From positions 41,845 to 105,844 of the forward strand of contig CAYNVT010000001.1 of the NCBI GenBank assembly GCA_964400685.1: a stretch of 64,000 nt of DNA, read 5' to 3'. This document shows positions 3,933-62,396 of this stretch, piece by piece. Each line of letters starts with the position of its first letter. The first letter of the stretch is position 1. Under the pieces are notes generated by a model, which had not been told where the DNA came from, did no database searches, and saw nothing but the letters and a program-made list of their open reading frames with translations. Source of the stretch: an uncultured Bacteriovoracaceae bacterium (GTDB taxonomy: Bacteria; Desulfobacterota; Desulfomonilia; UBA1062). The translations under genes were made by a program, and so were the position numbers.

Positions 3933-5822
3933 ATGTTGAGGAGAAGACATGCATTGTATTTGGTAATTGGAATGACACTGTTTTTCATGTCATCAGGCTT
4001 TCTTGGCATGTGCGTCGGTACTGATTACAAACCGGCAACAATCTCCATCACAAGCCCGGTAAAAGGTACAGTAATTGAAACCGGAACGCCTGCCATAATA
4101 ATCTCCGGAAAGGTAACAGCAGGAGACAGTGAGATACAGACGCTGAAGGCCCAGGGAAAGGTGATTGCATTTAATAATACTACCGGGGCTTTTTCTTACC
4201 AGCTTACAATGAATCAGACTAAAATATTTACGACATGTGAATTTACAGTAATTGATAAAAAGGGGATTGCCAATATTGAAAGGGTTTCCTATTCACTCGG
4301 GCAGGCATCCGAACCCGGGTCAGTCGGCGTAATAGACAATGCAATGAGACTGGTATTGACTGATTCTCTTCTCGATCAGGTTGAGATATTTGCAGGTAAC
4401 TTCATGAATACATGGAAAAATGACCTTGTTTATGGATGGGATAATGCCAGATACGGTTCACAGAATCCTGAAAGCCCGTTCGCTTCAATGTCGCCTGTCA
4501 TACCAACAGCAAGAATACCATTCGATGACGGTATGGACGGGTGGATACAGCTGTCACAGGAATACAGCGCATCTCAGGACAAGGGATACATAAACCTGGG
4601 CAAGATTTCCATATCAACCGACATACTGCCCACCAACCAGATAGCAGCCGGAATATTGATTACCCCTGAAAGCTGGGTAAATCCAAGAGGCGGCAGCGCG
4701 AAGGCCTTATTTGTCCAGGGACACTACAGGACTTATCCTCTCGGTATTGAGACAAGAATACACTTTACGGTTTATACGAACCTGGTAAACGTCTCCAACG
4801 TCAAACTGGGGCTTGGCGTCAATTCCAACAATAAGATTGTTGCAAAGCTGGATTTAAGGCAGGCAGATATTGATCTTGGGAATCCAACAATAGAATTTGG
4901 AGTTTTGGATCTGGAAGATGATCTGATTAACTTCGTACTCGACATAGTCAAGTGTCTGGTGCTGGAAAAGCTGGCCATTGAAATGGAGGTTGTCGGCGTA
5001 AATGACATAGCATTCGATCTTCTTGGATTGAACATCAGCGGCTGGCCAATGATGAGCACCGTATTTACAACGCCGACAGCTGATCAGATGATTATTGATC
5101 TGGGCCTGTCCGCCAAGCTTGCTGAAGACACCACACCGGCCGTACCCGACCTCACGGCATTCTACTCAACGCTTCCAAATACTCAGCCTGCTATAAACAT
5201 GACGTCCAGTGAGAATATCGCAGTTGCGATTTCGGATGATCTGATGAACGAGGCGGCCTTTGACCTGATACAACTCGGTATACTGAAAAATATGGACCTT
5301 ACATCTTATGTAAGGGATCTGCTTGGCAATCTTGCTACCGGCAAGACTATCATTGCAAAAGCGACGCTTGTTACTCCTCCTGTATTTGACTTCTCGGGAA
5401 CTGAGGTCATGCCTGATGGCATTACCCAGGTCGGCAGAGTCATAGTCAAAGATCTGTATTTCGATCTTTATTATAAATCATCTCTGCCGCCCTATCCTTA
5501 TGCGGCAAGAATGTGTGTCGATGTCGACCTTGACCTGCAGCTGAAGCTTTCCGATGACGGAAAGCATATACAGGCAATGCTCGATGTTCCTGAAAGCAGC
5601 TTCACCATCAACTACCTGTATACAAACCTGACAAATGCGGCATTGCTGCCTGAAATCGGGGGCAAGCTCACGGTCACGATTCTTGATATCCTCCTTCAGA
5701 AGCTTGTAGACATTGATATCCCGACTATTGACCTCTTCGGTCAGGGCATAGCGATCGGCATATCGGACACGGCACTGGTTAACAACTGCCTTGTTGCAAA
5801 GGTTAATGTGGCGGTTCAGTAG
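3933..5822 (+). CDS. hypothetical secreted protein (signal peptide, possible lipoprotein), no recognisable family
   Basis: 629 aa. A strong RBS (tAGGAGGtaataATG), an N-terminal hydrophobic signal (LYLVIGMTLFFMSSGFLGMC) and a beta-rich composition. It is preceded by ~550 bp of AT-rich DNA and followed by a strong terminator. Confidence 0.6.
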   Translation: MLRRRHALYLVIGMTLFFMSSGFLGMCVGTDYKPATISITSPVKGTVIETGTPAIIISGKVTAGDSEIQTLKAQGKVIAFNNTTGAFSYQLTMNQTKIFTTCEFTVIDKKGIANIERVSYSLGQASEPGSVGVIDNAMRLVLTDSLLDQVEIFAGNFMNTWKNDLVYGWDNARYGSQNPESPFASMSPVIPTARIPFDDGMDGWIQLSQEYSASQDKGYINLGKISISTDILPTNQIAAGILITPESWVNPRGGSAKALFVQGHYRTYPLGIETRIHFTVYTNLVNVSNVKLGLGVNSNNKIVAKLDLRQADIDLGNPTIEFGVLDLEDDLINFVLDIVKCLVLEKLAIEMEVVGVNDIAFDLLGLNISGWPMMSTVFTTPTADQMIIDLGLSAKLAEDTTPAVPDLTAFYSTLPNTQPAINMTSSENIAVAISDDLMNEAAFDLIQLGILKNMDLTSYVRDLLGNLATGKTIIAKATLVTPPVFDFSGTEVMPDGITQVGRVIVKDLYFDLYYKSSLPPYPYAARMCVDVDLDLQLKLSDDGKHIQAMLDVPESSFTINYLYTNLTNAALLPEIGGKLTVTILDILLQKLVDIDIPTIDLFGQGIAIGISDTALVNNCLVAKVNVAVQ

Positions 5823-5843
5823 CTGATATACAGGCAATAGAGC

Positions 5844-5877
5844 AAAAAGGCGTCCGGTAATTGCCGGACGCCTTTTT
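5844..5877. terminator. bidirectional rho-independent terminator
   Basis: aaaaaGGCGTCCGGtaattgCCGGACGCCttttt: a 9-bp GC stem flanked by an A-run and a T-run. It sits between convergent genes; the minus-strand gene's stop codon overlaps the tail. Confidence 0.75.
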
Positions 5878-6769
5878 ATTTTCTGATGGTATCTCTGTTG
5901 ATGATTGTGACCGGGATTGTGACGTCCGATGTTTCAGATAATAATTTCCTGATATCGATGCCGCCGGATACAAGCACTTCAATTCTTATATTTGAAAATA
6001 CCCTGTATATGAATTCCATGCTTTCAAACGGGAGCGTATTCTTGTAGACCGTCTCAAAACGTGATTTCATTTTCGTCAGACCCTTGATAAGCAGCCGTAT
6101 TCTTGAGGCTGCCTCTTCATGATGCAATGATTCAAAAGCCCCTAAAAAAACGAAGTCAGTTCCTTCAAGTATTAGAAAATCGGCAGGGTAAGCTATCCTG
6201 TAAAATTCCTTTATAAACTGATTTTCAATGGGCAGCGGCTTCAGGTTGCGGCTCAGAAGATACTGCTGCAACTCTTCATCGCTGTGGAGCAATCCAAGCA
6301 GTCCATTCGCAGATGTCTTTAATAATGCCTCTTCAATTATTGTCTGTGCAATTGAGTGAAAATTATCAGGATAGTATAATATTGCGGGCAGCGGTGCAAA
6401 TTTTTCTGCCTCATGAACGGCCTTTTCAAGTGGAATAACGATCTTATCAAAAGCGAGCATTATGCCGTATGAAAGGTGAACATCAGCCGATCGCGCGAGA
6501 TTCTTATCAGTAAATACCAGACAGAACCGGGACGAGATGATCTTTGAACAAACCTGTTCACAAAACATTATTTTATCATGATCTGACAGCTCCGGCATAA
6601 CATAGACATTAAGACCCTTTGCCATGAACAGATCGTTGAGGGTGCTTATCTCCATTTCATACTTCACCTTATCAGGTACGGCGATGAACACGTTTTTTTC
6701 GGAGCCTGCGAAATGACCGCAATAGGGTAGATCCAGCATGCAGGATTTTTTTTGTATAGTCTTTTTCAT
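5876..6769 (-). CDS. hypothetical protein; N-terminal region loosely resembles a Rossmann, TIR or nucleoside-deoxyribosyltransferase-like fold (tentative)
   Basis: 297 aa, contiguous with the upstream gene (stop at 6770, start at 6769). No confident family match by eye. Confidence 0.45.
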   Translation of the reverse strand: MKKTIQKKSCMLDLPYCGHFAGSEKNVFIAVPDKVKYEMEISTLNDLFMAKGLNVYVMPELSDHDKIMFCEQVCSKIISSRFCLVFTDKNLARSADVHLSYGIMLAFDKIVIPLEKAVHEAEKFAPLPAILYYPDNFHSIAQTIIEEALLKTSANGLLGLLHSDEELQQYLLSRNLKPLPIENQFIKEFYRIAYPADFLILEGTDFVFLGAFESLHHEEAASRIRLLIKGLTKMKSRFETVYKNTLPFESMEFIYRVFSNIRIEVLVSGGIDIRKLLSETSDVTIPVTIINRDTIRK

Positions 6770-29092: not shown

Positions 29093-29719
29093 CTATTTGA
29101 TTTTGAATTTATTCTCGTATTCCTCAAGCCATCTGGGGCAGTGTGTATTGGCCCAGGCCTTGGTCACCCAGCCGGTGATCATTGCCTGAACCGTTCCAGG
29201 GTTTCCAATGGTTCCGAGATAGATATGTACCATAATGAAGGATGCAAGGACGAAAACCGCCCCGGCATGGAACATGAAGGCAAGTGCCCCGATTGTCGGC
29301 CCGAGAAGCAGAGGGTTCAGCATGATGAGCCCTGTTATGACGATTATCACGCCACAGACTACAAGGAACCAGAAGAAGCCTTTCTGGCCCGCATTATATT
29401 TGTAGACAGGAGGGAGATTCTTTGCCTCCCAGAGATATCCTCCGCCCTGGAGTATCCAGCCCAGGTCATCTTTCTCGAACTTGCAGTCCTTGCTCCACTT
29501 CCAGTAGGCCCAGGCAAGTGCCATGCCGAAAATTATCCCGGAAAAGATATGCAGCCATTTTGTCGCGTAATATCCACCAAGAATCGTAGGTATTATGCTC
29601 CAATGGTGGAACATAAGGCCAAGCCCGGATATTACACAGAACAGGCAGCTTGCAGCCAGAGTCCAGTGGCCGAGCCTTTCCCATCCGTCGGTTATTCTTA
29701 CTTTGTTGTCGTTAGACAT
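29093..29719 (-). CDS. fdnI: formate dehydrogenase cytochrome b556 (gamma) subunit
   Basis: 208 aa with KYNAGQK and a C-terminal HCPRWLEEYE, matching E. coli FdnI. Confidence 0.85.
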   Translation of the reverse strand: MSNDNKVRITDGWERLGHWTLAASCLFCVISGLGLMFHHWSIIPTILGGYYATKWLHIFSGIIFGMALAWAYWKWSKDCKFEKDDLGWILQGGGYLWEAKNLPPVYKYNAGQKGFFWFLVVCGVIIVITGLIMLNPLLLGPTIGALAFMFHAGAVFVLASFIMVHIYLGTIGNPGTVQAMITGWVTKAWANTHCPRWLEEYENKFKIK

Positions 29720-30519
29720 TATTCACCTCCCTCTTTCTTCTCGTGAACTTCATGTGGTCCCTTGAGCAGGTAGTGTATCAGTGCTGCTCCGGCTACACCG
29801 CCTATTCCGAGAAGGGTAAACGGCTTGAAAAGGTTCTTCCAGATGAGCAGAGAGAGAGGCATTCTCGGATTGGGATTCATATCCTTCATATCTTTAATCG
29901 CTACATCTTTGGGGAATATGAAAAGCATGTTGGTTTCATACTTCGGGTTGGATGGATAGATATAACCTTCTATTTGCTCGATCCTTTTCTCAGCCTTTTT
30001 GAGCATCTCATCTCTCAATCCGAACTGGAGCGCGCCTGTACAGCATGAGGTTACACAAGCGGGTTTCATGCCGTCGGTTATCCTGTCATAGCACAGCGTG
30101 CATTTGGAGACCTTTTCCTTTTTCTTGTCGTACTTCGGAACCTCAAACGGGCATGCGACTGCGCACGAACGGCAGCCGATGCAGAATTCATCATTGTGAA
30201 TAACCGCACCCTCTGGTGTTTTTACCAGTGCTCCGGGAGACGGGCAGGCCTTTACGCATGCAGGGTCTTCGCAGTGCATGCAGGCGTCGTGCCTCATGAG
30301 GAATTTTAACCCGTTTTCTTTTTCAAGTTCATAGAACCTGATCAGTGTATATGTATCATAATCAAGGTCAGGCGGGTTCTGCAGAGAACCGGTGCACACT
30401 GTTTTTACCGCCGGAAGACCGTTCCAGTTTTTGCAGGCAACCTGGCAGCCCCTGCAACCCGTGCATTTCGTCACATCGACCAGTTTGATATATTTTGAAT
30501 GATTTTCAGTCTTTGTCAT
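29719..30519 (-). CDS. fdnH: formate dehydrogenase iron-sulfur (beta) subunit
   Basis: Four ferredoxin-type Cys clusters and a C-terminal TM helix. Confidence 0.85.
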   Translation of the reverse strand: MTKTENHSKYIKLVDVTKCTGCRGCQVACKNWNGLPAVKTVCTGSLQNPPDLDYDTYTLIRFYELEKENGLKFLMRHDACMHCEDPACVKACPSPGALVKTPEGAVIHNDEFCIGCRSCAVACPFEVPKYDKKKEKVSKCTLCYDRITDGMKPACVTSCCTGALQFGLRDEMLKKAEKRIEQIEGYIYPSNPKYETNMLFIFPKDVAIKDMKDMNPNPRMPLSLLIWKNLFKPFTLLGIGGVAGAALIHYLLKGPHEVHEKKEGGE

Positions 30520-30529
30520 GGCTTACCCC

Positions 30530-33500
30530 CTATTTCACTTTCTCAATGTTTACCAGGAATGCCTTGTATTCCGGTATCATCGTGTTAGCGTCACCAATAA
30601 ACGGGGTCAGGTCATTCATATTGCCGCCTGTCACCACTCCCTTATATCCGAAATGCCAGGTTGTGCCGACCATGTGATGAATCTGGCCGTCAATGGTAAA
30701 TGGCTTCAAACGCTTTGTAACCATTGCTACAGCTTCAACGCCTTCAACATTTCTGATAGAAACCAGCTTGACTTTGTCGCCATTTTTAATGCCCCGTTCC
30801 TTTGCCAGCTCTTCGCTTAATTCAACAAACTGATTTGGAATCATCTCGCAGAGCCATGGCAACCACCTTGTCATCTGTCCGGTCTGCCAGTGTTCTACGA
30901 CACGGTAGGTAGAACAGATAAGCGGGAAGTTTTTGGAATCAGGATTATTTATTGTTGCCGCTATACAGCCTTCGACGATGAAAGGATCGCACTGTTCCTT
31001 TAAAACTTCTTCGTCGAAGCGTTTTATTACCGGGTTCCATTGATATTTTGACATCATGTTTTTAACCGGTGACTCAAGCGGTTCATAATGTTCAGGGAAC
31101 GGGCCGTCCTTCATTCCGGCTGCGAACAGCATGCCATGTCCATGTGAATTCATGATGAACGGATATTTCTCGCCAGGTTTGCTGGCACCGTCTGAAATAT
31201 CTCCAGCCCATGCCCCTTTGAGAGCGTTCCACCATATGACCGGCTTGTCTTTCGCCCATGGCTTGCCTTCAAGGTTGACGCTGGCAAGATTGTAAACAAT
31301 CCTTCTGTTGACCGGCCATGCCCATGACCAGTTGTGGAACATGCCAAGCCCTGTCGGGTCAGCCGGATCGCGCCTCATCATCAGGTTGTCCTTGTCATTA
31401 ACAGAATTGCAGTATACCCAGCAGCCGCTGCATGTCGAACCGTCATCCTGAAGTAGCGCAAAGGATGGAACCATGTCTCCAGCCTTGAATTTCTTTATTT
31501 CTTTTGTCTTGGCGTCTTCGATTTCCTTGTCAGTCACGAAATAGCCATTGATCTCTTTAGCAACTTCTCTCGGGGACGGTTTTTCGGCAAGCGCGCCATA
31601 CTTCCATGTGAGGTTCAGTATCGGGTCGGGGAATGCCCCGCCTTCTTCCTTGTAAAGCTTTTTGAGCCTTAAAACGAGCTGGTTGATTATCCACAGGTCG
31701 TCTTCGGAATGTCCGATCGGGTCAATGGCCTTATATCGCCACTGCGCCCAGCGGCCCGAATTGGATACAGAACCCTCTTTTTCAACAGAAGAGCATGCGG
31801 GAAGCAGGAAGACTTCGGTCTTTATTTCTGCAGGATCAACACCTGCCTCTTTCTGCCAGAATGCTGAGGTTTCGGTTTCCCAGAGGTCAACCGCGACAAA
31901 CCAGTCAAGCTTGGAAAGCGCCCTGCGAACCATTTTTGAGCTTGGAGCGCCAACAGCGGGATTCATTCCCCAAGCCATAAGACCTTTAATTTTTCCCCTG
32001 GCCATTGTATTGAACATGGGGAGATATGAATAATTCTTTCCGTCGTCGATCTTTGGAAGATATCCATAGGCTGTTTCAAGGTCTGCATCCCGCCACCATG
32101 CCTTCATGAGGCTTGCCAGGTATTTGGGACGGTTGCCCCACCAGTTTATGCTCTTCGGATCTGAATTCTTGGGTGTATTTTTTTCATTGTATGCTGCAAT
32201 TGTATTCAGGCTTGCAGTGGGATATGGCAGATATCCGGGAAGTATGTGGAACAATGCGCCATGGTCGGTCGAGCCCTGAACATTGCTTTCTCCGCGCAGC
32301 GCATTTATGCCGCCCCCAGCTACACCGATATTTCCCAACAGCAACTGCAGGACAGCAAATATCCTTACATTCTGCGAGCCGTATGTATGCTGTGTTGTTC
32401 CCATTGCATACATTATTGTACCGGATTTTTCAGGTTTGAACGTAGAAGTGTATGCATCACAGACAGCTTCATACTGTTTAGGGTCGGTTCCGGTAATAGA
32501 ACAGACTTTTTCCGGTGTGTAGCGGGCATAATGCTTCTTGAGCTGCTGGAATACGCACATGGGGTCCTGCATTGTAAGGTCCTGTTTTGGTATGCCGTTT
32601 TCATCGACCTGATATTTCCATGTGTCAGTATTGTATTTGGAGCCTTCCAGCCCTGAAAATGCACCATCGAGATCGGTAGCGCCTTTGAAGTCAGGGTTAA
32701 CAAGGAATGTCGCATCAGTATAGTTCTTTACATACTCTTCCTGAACTCTGTTCTTTGAAAGTGCGTAGTTTATCATACCGCCAAGGAATGCTATGTCGGT
32801 TCCCGGCCTTAATCGTGCATAGATATCTGCAGTTGCAGACGTTCTGGTAAATCTGGGATCAACGCTTATTAATTTGGCGCCACGTTTGGCCCTGGCTTCA
32901 TTTACCCATTTAAATGAAATCGGATGGTTTTCTGCTGCATTTGAACCCATTATAAGGATTGCATCTGAATGCTGCAGGTCTATCCAGTGGTTTGTCATTA
33001 CACCGCGTCCGAATGATGCCGCCAGACCGGCGACGGTGGCGCTGTGTCAGATACGGGCCTGGTGTTCAACATATACCAGGCCTAAAGAACGGTTGAATTT
33101 TGTAAGACTGTAAACTTCTTCATTGTCGAGGGCTGCGCCGCCGATTGCTGCCATGGCATCGGTCCTGTTTACCACTTCACCCTTGTCGTTCTGAAGTGTG
33201 AATGTTTCATCACGAAGCTTTTTGATTTTCCTTGCTATATTGTCCAATGCCCAGTCCCATTCAACTTCCTGCCACTTGTCAGCGCCGGGAGCCCTGTACT
33301 GAACCTTTGACAATCGTTTGTCATTGTTTGCAATCTGGTAAAGTGCCGCACCTTTTGCGCAGAGCGAGCCTTTGTTTATAGGGTGATCAGGATCACCTTC
33401 AGTACCGATAACCTTGCCGTTGCTGACCTGTGCAATAATTCCGCATCCGACGCCGCAATAAGGGCAGATGGTAGTTACTTCCTTTGCATAGCGGATTTTT

Positions 33501-33604
33501 TTCGGCTGGGCCAGAACAGGCTGTACGCCTATGCTGACGCCGATTCCCGCTGCTGCAAGGCTACCGCCGGAAAGTTTAAGGAAACCCCTTCTGGTAAGTT
33601 CCAT
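30530..33604 (-). CDS. fdnG: formate dehydrogenase alpha subunit, selenocysteine-containing, Tat-exported (in-frame UGA at 33047-33049)
   Basis: ORF-track entries 33047..33604 and 30530..32998 are in the same frame, separated only by TGA. The sequence reads ...VEHQARI-U-HSATVAGLAASFGRG..., matching the FdnG selenocysteine (Sec) context. The N-terminus has a Tat signal, RRGFLK. Confidence 0.9.
33000..33046 (-). other. putative bacterial SECIS stem-loop immediately 3' of the fdnG UGA
   Basis: The mRNA reads UGA CAC AGC GCC ACC GUC GCC GGU CUG GCG GCA UC.... A UCGCC/GGCGG stem with a GGUC(U) apical loop lies ~20 nt after the UGA, resembling the E. coli fdhF SECIS geometry. Confidence 0.4.
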
Positions 33605-33679
33605 GCAACCTCTCCTATTTGTTTTTTTTGGGACTGAACCACGTTATTCAATAATTCAAGTTAAATCAAGCGGAATGAA

Positions 33680-33732
33680 TTATGCACAAACATGCATAAC
33701 TAATTGATTATATTATGCAATATGGTGCATAA
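33680..33732. promoter_or_regulatory. two perfect palindromes TTATGCA-N6-TGCATAA (33680-33699 and 33713-33732), 33 bp centre-to-centre, in the fdnG/fdhE divergent control region
   Basis: Read directly from the sequence: ttatgcaCAAACAtgcataa and ttatgcaATATGGtgcataa. Confidence 0.55.
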
Positions 33733-33778
33733 AATTACCTGTATGATGCTTGACTTGACGTGGTATCTAACCTAATGT

Positions 33779-34495
33779 GTGCAAATGGACTGGGAACTGA
33801 TATTGAAAACATATCCTGATGACAGGGAAGGAATTCTTAAGGCAAAAGGCCTTTATGAAAGCATAACATCCGCCTGCGAAAATTTCATGATCCCTGCAAT
33901 AGATACTGCTAAAATTTCCGATGGAGATTTTCAGCAGCTTGTGCCCCTTCTGGCAGAGATCTGCTCAAAGGCATGGGAGAAACATTTTAAAGCAAAGCCT
34001 GCTTTTGATATGATATCCGCCGCCGACGCTTTTATCTGGGGCGGCAGCATCAATGTGCCTGAATCAGACAGCGCCGCAATCGGTGCTCTTCTGAATAATG
34101 CACTCAGGGCAGTTCTGAGAAGGTTGAGAGAATCATCCCGCGAACCTGGAAAGCCCGAAAATTATTCAGGAAGATGCGCATTCTGCGGCACGCATGCGCG
34201 CATAGCTTTTGACGAGGAGTCGCAGCGGGTTCTTCACTGTCCACTCTGCGATTTTTCATGGAGATTTCCCAGAATCCGGTGCACCTATTGCGGGAATACC
34301 GACCATGAAAAGCTAGGCTTTTTCGAGGCTGAAGGCATTGATGGAGCAAGGATTTATTTCTGCAGGGCGTGCAGCTGTTTTATCAAGGTTATTGATGCAA
34401 AGAATAAAATATCACCCGATGCGGAAACGATTGATGCAATAACGCTGGAACTGGACGAACTTGCGAAAGAAGAAGGCTTTGTCCCTGTTCCCTGA
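33779..34495 (+). CDS. fdhE: formate dehydrogenase accessory protein FdhE
   Basis: Four CxxC pairs (CAFCG, CPLCD, CTYCG, CRAC) in an FdhE arrangement. There is no obvious Shine-Dalgarno sequence. Confidence 0.8.
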   Translation: MQMDWELILKTYPDDREGILKAKGLYESITSACENFMIPAIDTAKISDGDFQQLVPLLAEICSKAWEKHFKAKPAFDMISAADAFIWGGSINVPESDSAAIGALLNNALRAVLRRLRESSREPGKPENYSGRCAFCGTHARIAFDEESQRVLHCPLCDFSWRFPRIRCTYCGNTDHEKLGFFEAEGIDGARIYFCRACSCFIKVIDAKNKISPDAETIDAITLELDELAKEEGFVPVP

Positions 34496-40486: not shown

Positions 40487-41830
40487 TTAATCGATTCTGA
40501 CTCCCTGTCTTTTAAGGGCCTTTTGCACTTTTTTTATATCAACCTCTCTGCAAGTAACACCGTCCTTAAGGGATTGTGCCGCAGCAATTCCAGCACCCTG
40601 TCCTGTTACTGTGCAGCACATCATCTGTCTTGTAGCTGCATGGGACAGTTTATCACCGGCGACACAACGGCCAGCTACTAGGAGGTTTTCAACCTTCAGA
40701 GGAAGAATTATACCATAGGGAACATGAAAGTAACGGCCAGTACTTGGCATTATGGCGGTTTTATTGCCGTCAAGAAATTCAGGGAATATTCCAATGGAGT
40801 CATCAAAATGCGCCTGGTTTAACATCTCTTCACCGGTGATATTATATTCACCAATGATTTTTCTCGATTCCCTTGTACCAAGGGAAGCGCCCATTGTTCT
40901 GAGTCTGGATTTTTCAAAACCGGGAGTAAATTTCTTCAAGGCCTCAACCGCCCACATGACATGCTGCCTTCCCTCGATTTCAGCCTTTGTAAGATCCCAG
41001 ACATCTGTACAGTCATAATTCGGCATATGAACTGCGTTGAGTGTCCTGATCTCTCCCGCATCGGTAAAGTCGTTCCAGTAGCTTTCCAGATGGGCATATT
41101 CCGGTATATCGCCGTTTTTCTTTGCCTTTTCAAAAGGCTCAACAAGGTAGGTGCTGAACTCGCCTCCTTCTTTATCACCGGAGTTCTGGCCCCAGTCCGC
41201 AATCGTCGTTCCCCTGTTTAATATATAATCAAGAAATACCTGGACATCTACGCCACTGCATCCGAAATTCACAGATACAGGCTCCAATATCTCTTTCGGG
41301 TCGAGACGGTATGGAGCACCGGCATGAAAGGCAACATCCGCATCACCCGAGGCATCGATAACTCTCTTGGCAAGAATCGCCTGTCTTCCTGACTTGCTCT
41401 CTGTAACAACACCAGCAATGGTATTTCCCTCCATGATCACATTTACTGTTGTGCAATGAAGAAGGGGAATTATCCCCGCTTCCTTGACCATTGTATCAGC
41501 GATATACTTGAAGACTTCAGTATCAAGAATTTCATAAAAGAATATGCTGAGGCTTGCCCCCATCTCTTTTGCACGTTTCTCGAATTCAACACCTATTCCA
41601 CCGGCATCCACAACCTTCTCATTGGACCTGTACCAGGCAATAGTCCCAACAATTGATTGTGTTATGTTGCCTCCAAAGCATCCGTAACGTTCAACGAGCA
41701 TCGTATCAACACCTTCTCTTGCGGATGCCAGGGCTGCAGAGAGACCGCCTGGTCCGCCGCCGATTACAAGAACATCAGTTTCAGCAATTACTGGAATCTT
41801 TCTTATTCTTTCTTCAATGTATTTAATCAA
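40487..41830 (-). CDS. FAD-dependent oxidoreductase (PF12831-like)
   Basis: N-terminal DVLVIGGGPGGLSAALASAREG dinucleotide-binding motif. Confidence 0.7.
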   Translation of the reverse strand: MIKYIEERIRKIPVIAETDVLVIGGGPGGLSAALASAREGVDTMLVERYGCFGGNITQSIVGTIAWYRSNEKVVDAGGIGVEFEKRAKEMGASLSIFFYEILDTEVFKYIADTMVKEAGIIPLLHCTTVNVIMEGNTIAGVVTESKSGRQAILAKRVIDASGDADVAFHAGAPYRLDPKEILEPVSVNFGCSGVDVQVFLDYILNRGTTIADWGQNSGDKEGGEFSTYLVEPFEKAKKNGDIPEYAHLESYWNDFTDAGEIRTLNAVHMPNYDCTDVWDLTKAEIEGRQHVMWAVEALKKFTPGFEKSRLRTMGASLGTRESRKIIGEYNITGEEMLNQAHFDDSIGIFPEFLDGNKTAIMPSTGRYFHVPYGIILPLKVENLLVAGRCVAGDKLSHAATRQMMCCTVTGQGAGIAAAQSLKDGVTCREVDIKKVQKALKRQGVRID

Positions 41831-42540
41831 ATGCTACCTCCAGCAATATCCTTTTTCGATATAAATGATGCGCATATTGTTGCATGTTCCCGGGCAAGTT
41901 TTCTTGCCAGCTCCACATCCTTATCTATGATAGCCTCCAATATGGGCCTGTGCCTTTCAAGGGCTTCCACCCTATCTTCAATGCTTCGGGCATACCTGAT
42001 CAGGAATGCCTGGATATGGCGGAAGAGAGCCTGATACATGGCAATAAAAAACTGGTTGCCTGACATTTCAACAAGAGCGAAGTGGAAGTCATAGTCCCGT
42101 CTGGCAAATAGTTCAGGGTCATCTAATACATTTTCATCATATTTAAGCAGACCTTCAAGGAAGGTGATCTGATCGGCTGTGCGAGTTTTTGAAACTTTAG
42201 CAGCAACTTCAGATTCAATCAGGTTCCTGGCTTCAACAAGATCATTCATCCGATTGAAATCATGGTTTGGAAATAGAGGAATGAGAACATTATCCAGGGC
42301 GGAAACGCTGATGGATTTTGTGACATATGCGCCCTTGCCATGTCGCACATGAATAATTCCGAGTGCTGCCAGTCTTGCAAGGGCTTCTCGCAGGGTAAGA
42401 CGGCTCACAGAGTATTCCTGCAGCATTACCTGTTCACTTGGCAACTGATCTCCAGGCCCGAATTCACCGTTCCTGATGCGTTCTTTTAAACTTTCGACAA
42501 TGGCTTTCGTGGCTGTAACCCGAAGAAGGGGAATAGACAT
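41827..42540 (-). CDS. GntR-family transcriptional regulator (FadR subfamily: wHTH + FCD)
   Basis: An EQVMLQEYSVSRLTLREAL helix-turn-helix (HTH) and a C-terminal helical FadR C-terminal domain (FCD). Its start overlaps the FAD-oxidoreductase stop. Confidence 0.85.
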   Translation of the reverse strand: MSIPLLRVTATKAIVESLKERIRNGEFGPGDQLPSEQVMLQEYSVSRLTLREALARLAALGIIHVRHGKGAYVTKSISVSALDNVLIPLFPNHDFNRMNDLVEARNLIESEVAAKVSKTRTADQITFLEGLLKYDENVLDDPELFARRDYDFHFALVEMSGNQFFIAMYQALFRHIQAFLIRYARSIEDRVEALERHRPILEAIIDKDVELARKLAREHATICASFISKKDIAGGSI

Positions 42541-62016: not shown

Positions 62017-62189
62017 ATTTTTTTGCTTTGTTACCTGGTTTATAATTTATAATAAATTAATTATCGATTCTTTTTAAGAAATTTGTAGTTGCGATTTCCA
62101 GTTTTCAATGGTTAGATGAAAGCAGATTGATTCCATTTAAATTGCGATCAGTTAATTTGATTAATTGTATATTCAACAGGGAGGATGTT

Positions 62190-62396
62190 ATGGATTGGCT
62201 GCTGACTGTTGAACTGGAAGAGTCAATAGTGGAGAAAATTGACAGGACTGCAAAAAGATTGGGAAAAACGAGAATAGAGATAGCGAATGTGATAGTGGGT
62301 CATATCCTTGAAAATCTCATGGCTGAAAAACAGAATAAAGAATATGACATGAAGATGAATCTGTTTGATGCATTAAAAAAGAATAATCCAAAATAG
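62190..62396 (+). CDS. ribbon-helix-helix (RHH; CopG/Arc-like) DNA-binding protein, orphan
   Basis: I prefer the start MDWLLTVELEESIVEKIDRTAKRLGKTRIEIANVIVGHILENL (beta strand, helix, helix), with GGGAGGA 6 nt upstream of the ATG at 62190. The ORF-track start at 62127 lacks an RBS. Confidence 0.5.
   Translation: MDWLLTVELEESIVEKIDRTAKRLGKTRIEIANVIVGHILENLMAEKQNKEYDMKMNLFDALKKNNPK

Follow-up and report, generated by a model that had tools for sequence, protein, structure and literature searches.

In Escherichia coli, the transcription factor ModE represses modABCD and enhances the expression of moa, dmsA, napF, hyc and nar, and ModE is able both to activate and to repress. The Mo-boxes of Rhodobacter capsulatus MopA and MopB are palindromes of the ModE type, and whether they mediate repression or activation depends on where they lie relative to the promoter. 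In syntrophs and sulfate reducers, tungsten and molybdenum affect the expression of formate dehydrogenases; to our knowledge, most regulators of this response are still to be identified.

The E. coli ModE consensus reads atCGnTATATA-N6-TATATAnCGat (PMC545781), and full-length ModE occurs in only some delta-proteobacteria (Rodionov et al., PMC545781). Recombinant ModE of Methanosarcina acetivorans binds RTTATGT-N8-RCATAAY in EMSA, and mutation or deletion of the half-sites abolishes binding (PMC12327845). In that archaeon, ModE boxes precede Mo ABC transporters, formylmethanofuran dehydrogenase (fmd operon) and nitrogenases, and four of them lie in the divergent anf/vnf intergenic region (PMC12327845). 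A Mo/W regulator site of the Desulfovibrio type, CGGTCACG-N14-CGTGACCG, was assigned to ModE (PMC545781). The sequence studied here bears no likeness to this GC-rich 8-N14-8 inverted repeat. The Desulfovibrio-type site is said to have been attributed later to TunR.

Twin palindromes between fdnG and fdhE

The window, by which we mean the whole 64-kb stretch of DNA that was analysed, contains an fdnGHI operon for a periplasmic formate dehydrogenase and a divergent fdhE. The original prediction placed two TTATGCA-N6-TGCATAA sites with identical arms, 33 bp apart, between the Tat-FdnG operon on the minus strand and fdhE on the plus strand, and both the sites and the gene context were found exactly so. 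The features of the locus are as follows.

29093-29719, minus strand: fdnI (Pfam Ni_hydr_CYTB)
29719-30519, minus strand: fdnH (Pfam Fer4_11, Form-deh_trans)
30530-33604, minus strand: fdnG, catalytic subunit of the periplasmic Mo/W formate dehydrogenase (Pfam Molybdop_Fe4S4, Molybdopterin, Molydop_binding)
32994-33052, minus strand: SECIS-like element in fdnG, starting at the in-frame TGA (SECIS_3, E = 4.9e-7, a match that scores below the Rfam gathering score)
33047-33049, minus strand: selenocysteine codon, the in-frame TGA of fdnG
33605-33784: divergent fdnG/fdhE intergenic control region, 180 bp
33641-33669, minus strand: putative fdnG promoter-like element TTGATT-N17-TAACGT, called by hand
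33679-33700: ModE-type box 1, A-TTATGC-acaaacat-GCATAA-C, fdnG-proximal, the copy kept clade-wide
33680-33699: core palindrome of box 1, TTATGCA-CAAACA-TGCATAA, exact in the window sequence
33700-33712: linker between the boxes, 13 bp, sequence not conserved among relatives
33712-33733: ModE-type box 2, A-TTATGC-aatatggt-GCATAA-A, fdhE-proximal, lineage-specific
33713-33732: core palindrome of box 2, TTATGCA-ATATGG-TGCATAA, exact in the window sequence
33750-33778, plus strand: putative fdhE promoter-like element TTGACT-N17-TAATGT, called by hand
33785-34495, plus strand: FdhE-like maturation gene, divergent from fdnG (weak Pfam FdhE_C match)

The fdnG product has a Tat-type N-terminus, and its selenocysteine (Sec) context, HQARI*HSATV, is common to relatives. 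The true start of fdhE is the ATG at 33785; its FdhE-like homologues are 236 aa long, part of them named FdhE by JGI. A NiFe hydrogenase/hyp cluster comes after fdnI. The fdnGHI operon (window 29093-33604), which lies between the NiFe hydrogenase operon and fdhE, was missing in L002 (8515-10714) and in the P0003 contig. In these, hyaA and fdhE adjoin each other in divergent orientation, and the operon thus behaves as an inserted or deleted cassette. The FdhE-like gene is retained in both without an adjoining formate dehydrogenase. Related contigs came from anaerobic digesters, sludge and sediments. At NCBI, assembly CAZEMO01 is labelled 'uncultured Bacteriovoracaceae bacterium', whereas Desulfomonilia bacterium is the label of a sequence in the same FBPase cluster (90% identity); the Sec formate dehydrogenases, the Hya hydrogenase and the digester origin fit the Desulfomonilia label better.

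Box 1 and box 2 are 33 bp apart from start to start, with the 13-bp linker between them. Besides the two boxes, no further TTATGCA-N6-TGCATAA copy with <3 mismatches was found in the 64-kb window, in which 3.6e-4 exact sites are expected by chance from base composition. The half-site TTATGCA alone was not enriched there (15 observed, 11.6 expected). Between the two boxes, the arms were identical at 14/14 positions and the spacer plus linker at ~4/19, and the copies of the 21-nt direct repeat were 76% identical. With identical arms and a diverged spacer and linker, the twin boxes are no fresh duplication; the copies are old, and the arms alone have been maintained. The AT-rich setting and the 33-bp indel between one-box and two-box relatives would suit chance palindromes or the functionless residue of a recent tandem duplication, but this reading is barely credible given the chance expectation, the divergence outside the arms and the conservation of the boxes down to 69% FdnG identity.

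Read as R-TTATGY-N8-RCATAA-Y, box 1 matched the Methanosarcina ModE motif RTTATGT-N8-RCATAAY at 13/14 positions and box 2 at 12/14. The boxes also share the hexamer-N6-hexamer geometry of the E. coli ModE operator. Against its TATATA core they matched at only 8/12 positions, and they lacked the CG flanks; this low core match explains why the original prediction missed the likeness to ModE, and its statement that the motif does not match ModE is not supported. It was right that they do not match the FNR/CRP consensus, the half-site here being TATGYA and not that of TTGAT-N4-ATCAA or TGTGA-N6-TCACA. The spacers CAAACA and ATATGG were not conserved and lacked the central CG of LacI operators, which excluded a LacI site. 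Sites for ArgR, LacI, CRP/FNR, NtcA, NsrR/Rrf2, Rex, LexA and sigma-54/EBP were rejected by spacing, half-site or context. Since the boxes match a known ModE recognition sequence, they point to an ordinary metal-cofactor control element rather than to the site of an unknown regulator.

We consider it likely that the twin palindromes are Mo-boxes for a molybdate/tungstate-responsive transcription factor of the ModE family, which couples fdnGHI (and fdhE) to metal. A winged-helix dimer would sit on each R-TTATGY-N8-RCATAA-Y box, box occupancy would couple transcription of the Mo/W-dependent Sec fdnGHI to the availability of the cofactor metal, and the divergent maturation gene fdhE would probably come under the same metal control. 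We infer ModE itself as the binder, molybdate or tungstate as the signal, and the sign of regulation. The 14-base pattern also occurs in operators of the PadR and LacI families, so sequence alone cannot name the binding protein. Neither the 64-kb window nor the examined clade loci yielded a modE gene (HTH_1 + TOBE).

The window gene set held no regulator gene adjoining the twin boxes, and the 64-kb window held no Mo/W transporter gene. Several other genes were rejected as the cognate regulator: the GntR/FCD gene at 41827-42540 sits in a sugar-catabolism cluster, HrcA is part of a heat-shock cluster, and the ORF at 62127-62396 has merely a weak RHH match. The divergent 116-aa and 202-aa ORFs in L130-132, tried as regulators, appear spurious.

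Box conservation, box number and promoter placement

Relatives were gathered with a 185-aa N-terminal fragment of FdnG (FdnG-N), a query free of motif bias, which gave 80 metagenomic loci. One or two sites (<=3 mismatches) were present 85-180 bp upstream of fdnG in 22 of the 27 loci with FdnG-N at least 69% identical, and in none of the 53 more distant loci (<=63% FdnG-N identity) was a site found in the same upstream zone. Coding-DNA controls gave one site match in ~120 kb. Lack of conservation upstream of fdnG in relatives had been named as grounds for refutation; the conservation seen supports the sites as operators of a dimeric regulator in the fdnG/fdhE control region.

The consensus of 21 non-redundant proximal sites was TATGYA-N6-TRCATA, with T2, G5, A7, C16, A17 and A19 invariant and an AT-rich, otherwise free spacer, the apparent conservation of the arms being inflated because orthologous sites were selected by likeness to the motif. 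At <=1 mismatch, this consensus matched 30 times in 391 kb of loci, and all 30 matches lay upstream of clade fdnG. Orthologues of box 1 at the same distance from fdnG were present in L003, L124, L125, L127, L128, L129, L207 and L211; in the very close relatives L207 and L211, both boxes stayed within the consensus and the spacers differed. The box tracks fdnG and not fdhE, since it persists where the upstream neighbour gene differs, and no box was found upstream of fdhE in L002, which has no fdnGHI and in which fdhE faces the hydrogenase operon. We found that the arms alone are under purifying selection, and that the sites track fdnG across the clade and recur at other Mo/W genes in related genomes.

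Each palindrome can make a 7-10 bp stem, the L055 copy was flagged as terminator-like and the L064 Shewanella copy resembles an intercistronic stem-loop, which would accord with RNA leader hairpins, cruciforms or a terminator in place of protein sites. The predicted hairpins were weak, however (-5.7 to -9 kcal/mol), no Rfam family match was obtained in the fdnG/fdhE intergenic region, and the genes on either side are both transcribed away from the sites. Among the 46 arm departures in 31 orthologous sites, 1 was compensated, 12 were G-T and 33 broke pairing. Conserved arms, drifting spacers and uncompensated arm changes indicate a predicted protein-binding site and not a hairpin, and a role as nucleic-acid structures appears highly improbable.

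The original prediction had listed formate, selenium, molybdate and redox state as possible signals. Molybdate is the best supported of these, and specificity for selenium was not borne out, since boxes precede both the Sec (TGA) and the Cys (TGC) forms of FdnG. The upstream regions of L138 and L140, which encode Cys FdnG, are nearly the same as those of L139 and L143, which encode Sec FdnG.

A second conserved palindrome, AATGAAT-N4-ATTCATT (equivalent to ATGAA-N6-TTCAT), was observed 4-8 bp downstream of the proximal ModE-type box in the fdnG upstream regions of L133 (2905-2930), L136, L141, L144-149 and L152. A TAnAAT hexamer often precedes it, and it could serve as another operator or belong to the core promoter. 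In the window group, only TTCATT is present, immediately next to box 1.

Alignment of the control regions (A1) showed that a clean 33-bp indel, consisting of box 2 and the linker, separates one-box from two-box loci. L124 and L125 carry a single box in an intergenic region 33 bp shorter; box 2 is present in the window, L128, L207 and L211 and has decayed in L003 and L127. Elsewhere, the boxes of a pair are spaced by 29 bp (L133, L136, L152), 47 bp (L139, L143) or 62 bp (L130-132). With spacings of 29, 33, 47 and 62 bp all found and close relatives carrying one box, conserved helical phasing of the pair was rejected, and the original suggestion of cooperative binding over three helical turns as the design of the site fell with it. 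Where relatives carry only one box, it is 10 bp away from the conserved TTGATT on the fdnG side and 18 bp away from the conserved TTGACT on the fdhE side; in the window, box 1 keeps the 10-bp distance on the fdnG side and box 2 nearly keeps that on the fdhE side (17 bp). In the ancestral Desulfomonilia-like state, one box would have served two back-to-back promoters, and the extra 33-bp segment (linker and box) would have given each promoter its own box in the window sublineage.

We examined the placement of the boxes relative to promoters. A strict sigma-70 scan of the window called no promoter facing fdnG or fdhE; the hand-called fdnG promoter-like element fails it because its -10 is weak. 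This fdnG block was almost invariant in six relatives in alignment A1, and box 1 ends 10 bp upstream of its -35-like element. The fdhE promoter-like element is kept in L002, L003, L124, L125, L127 and L128; it stops 6 nt before the ATG at 33785, and box 2 ends 17 bp upstream of its -35. The hand-called promoters thus place both window boxes upstream of the -35, which favors activation. The promoters of L213, L219 and L055 are close to consensus (10-11 of 12 matches), and a box covers their -10, spacer or start point of transcription; this overlap favors repression. The best promoter of L133 has boxes near -74 and -103, and box placement relative to predicted promoters varies among loci. The minus strand of the linker (33712 to 33707) reads a perfect TATAAT, which might be an alternative -10 element of fdnG; if it is used, box 2 would lie over the alternative promoter and box 1 downstream of its start.

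Two further observations concern this region. The fdhE gene has no Shine-Dalgarno sequence, and TTGACT-N17-TAAnGT stands 6 nt before the ATG in relatives as well (window 33750-33787), which together suggest a leaderless fdhE mRNA. The -35-like blocks at 33657-33671 (GCTTGATTTAAC) and 33748-33762 (GCTTGACTTGAC) are inverted copies of each other and give the control region an overall mirror symmetry about the boxes.

Recurrence of the boxes at other Mo/W genes

L207 shares synteny and 88% nucleotide identity with the window over 6.7 kb, and it belongs to the same assembly, CAZEMO01, as L055, in which one exact box and one box with a single mismatch lie upstream of a second, NAD-type Sec formate dehydrogenase. 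NAD-type fdhA is preceded by boxes in L055, L212, L213, L216 and L219, and in L216 boxes lie upstream of both tandem fdhA copies. Among the fdhA relatives, 16/16 boxes with <=1 mismatch were intergenic, and two boxes were perfect 14/14 matches to the ModE motif. In two lineages (L213/L216 and L219), boxes are located 26-27 bp upstream of SBP_bac_11 genes, which encode a Mo/W-binding protein. Genes for FmdE, MoCF biosynthesis and TOBE/Mop proteins neighbour the boxed fdhA and transporter genes, including a 69-aa TOBE/Mop gene beside the transporter in L213-218. The archaeal MAG L106 has the identical half-sites, GTTATGCAatccatTGCATAAC, in the intergenic region that separates modA/modB-like genes from a divergent ModE gene (HTH_1 + TOBE). 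Matches to an approximate E. coli ModE sequence were counted as ModE genes only when Pfam bore them out. A Thermomicrobiales Sec-fdnG (L028) has ATCGTTATGCA-N6-TGCATAACG, with CG flanks of the E. coli type, ~175 bp upstream.

These loci bear on whether the sites belong to an uncharacterised regulator dedicated to formate dehydrogenase and sensing formate, selenium or redox state. No regulator gene is tied to the sites in this lineage and boxes stand at two different formate dehydrogenase operons, both as such a regulator would have it, but boxes stand upstream of Mo/W ABC transporter genes too, they match a ModE motif that EMSA has validated, and their presence at Sec and Cys FdnG argues against a regulator specific for selenium. 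We regard a dedicated regulator as improbable, and the original suggestion of an uncharacterised one gives way before the boxes at Mo/W transporters and a second formate dehydrogenase and the identical half-sites between modAB and modE.

A genome scan had been proposed to define a regulon. The exact 14-base pattern was scanned in 185,579 species genomes and was found at at least 120 loci. Among the matches listed were LacI operators (15 loci with an adjacent lacI-type gene, with aaCGtt spacers), PadR operators (8 loci), tandem ARG boxes by argB/argC/argR, group II intron hairpins, extended stem-loops and apparent chance matches. With such a mixture of unrelated operators, hairpins and chance, the 14-base pattern defines no regulon, and the proposed scan did not serve its purpose; L055, L028 and L106 were the useful loci among the scan matches listed. 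The ~550-aa proteins near sites in L010, L035 and L087, considered as formate-THF ligase, are alpha-amylases. The raw palindrome sequence gave incidental matches only in the literature.

The canonical PadR operator is ATGT-N8-ACAT (PMC3506622, PMC5050560), and the window sites, which read ATGY-N8-RCAT, have the same inverted-repeat geometry and a near-identical half-site. Among the matches listed, 8 unrelated genomes have a padR gene beside exact TTATGCA-N6-TGCATAA sites, and these are often twin sites with a spacing of 27-42 bp. On these grounds the boxes could be operators of a PadR-family or other winged-helix protein without metal sensing, sharing the ATGY-N8-RCAT geometry with Mo-boxes by chance. 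PadR sites normally stand beside padR and its detoxification/efflux targets, however, and neither is found at the window boxes, nor is there a padR gene in the window or related loci. The PadR-linked sites keep a palindromic spacer (acatgt), whereas the spacer is free in the fdnG clade, and the targets, two formate dehydrogenases and Mo/W transporters, are those predicted for a ModE regulon and not for PadR. PadR-type operators are an unlikely explanation, and we retain the reading as ModE-type Mo-boxes.

Additional features were noted at these loci. A third ModE-like box, A-TTATGA-gtaaaata-ACATAA-T, is located at window 29010-31, ~125 bp upstream of the NiFe hydrogenase gene hyaA and just past the fdnI terminator; it matches the archaeal motif at 13/14 positions, a match of which ~0.5 are expected by chance in the window, differs from the clade consensus by 3 mismatches and is not conserved in L002. 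M. acetivorans ModE likewise binds upstream of a hydrogenase operon, vht. L176 (1446-2642) encodes a 118-aa protein with the ModE N-domain only (HTH_1), next to fdhD and divergent from fdnG; L176 (57% FdnG identity) has no TATGYA box, so its ModE-like protein may recognise another sequence. A small conserved ORF of 66-118 aa (..EI.VF.SR.AA..W..), which matches no Pfam family, separates the boxes from fdhA in L212 (~5642-5850), L213 (5616-5816) and L219 (5563-5919), and in L216 the unit of small ORF and fdhA occurs twice in tandem, a HisKA/HATPase gene lying between the two.

L055 also contains TTGTCGACAA-like boxes (~855-892, ~5455-5465), which occur between Fe-ADH and fdhA and ahead of a GntR/FCD gene (5626-6285). 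Such boxes are typical of operators of FadR-subfamily GntR proteins and suggest a second regulator of the alcohol/aldehyde dehydrogenase and fdhA cluster beside the ModE-type boxes. L064 (Shewanella sp. c952, 1100-1125) has the exact motif inside a palindrome with a 10-bp stem, GGGTTATGCAccaaggTGCATAACCC. This copy falls within the 44 bp that separate the fdhB-like gene from the cytochrome b gene in a formate dehydrogenase operon, and it probably forms an intercistronic stem-loop in the RNA rather than an operator.

A possible Mo/W regulon and its relation to known ModE systems

A broader reading, which we hold to be possible but doubtful, joins these observations into a lineage-wide Mo/W regulon of ModE-type boxes with an unusual or non-ModE binder, in which the 33-bp module tunes the divergent promoters. 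Such a regulon would coordinate the periplasmic Sec and Cys FdnGHI, the cytoplasmic NAD-type Sec FdhA, the maturation gene and Mo/W uptake, and possibly the neighbouring NiFe hydrogenase. The binder could be a protein with the ModE DNA-binding domain only, acting alongside a separate Mop/TOBE protein; alternatively, a factor other than ModE could have taken the box over. Whether the promoters share an operator or have one each would be set by gain or loss of the 33-bp module. If true, this reading would supply the missing regulator of the W/Mo-dependent switching between formate dehydrogenase isoenzymes that has been reported for syntrophs and sulfate reducers.

The transfer of formate and hydrogen between species in anaerobic digesters and sediments centres on formate dehydrogenases. 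Taken as Mo-boxes, the palindromes would be a concrete cis-element by which, in an uncultured Desulfomonilia-like group, a ModE-type factor is tied to Mo/W uptake and to two or more formate dehydrogenase operons, and the locus would illustrate the doubling of an operator common to divergent promoters. This is a modest extension of the known ModE regulon and a useful annotation, with no new mechanism.

The boxes resemble those of M. acetivorans ModE in half-sites and spacing (13/14, 12/14), in the presence of several boxes per divergent region, in the Mo/W enzyme and transporter targets, and in the alternation of T/C and A/G at the same half-site position. They differ in that the host is a bacterium (a Desulfomonilia-like MAG), the targets are a periplasmic Sec formate dehydrogenase and fdhE, the sites are predicted, TTATGC is the commoner left half-site, and no modE gene was seen in the examined lineage loci. 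Compared with E. coli ModE, the clade core is TATGYA and not TATATA (8/12), and the CG flanks are absent in the window and present in L028 and L106. The archaeal ModE motif is also without the E. coli-type TATATA core and CG flanks, which are a feature of the proteobacterial subtype. MopA and MopB of R. capsulatus differ in their targets (anfA, mop, modABC, morAB) and in a box sequence that is E. coli-like. With the E. coli ModE operator, the boxes have in common a hexamer-N6-hexamer inverted repeat, which a dimer binds there, and membership, predicted here, of a metal-cofactor regulon with molybdoenzyme genes in it. Repression or activation according to box position is a further common trait, likewise predicted here from the placement of the boxes.
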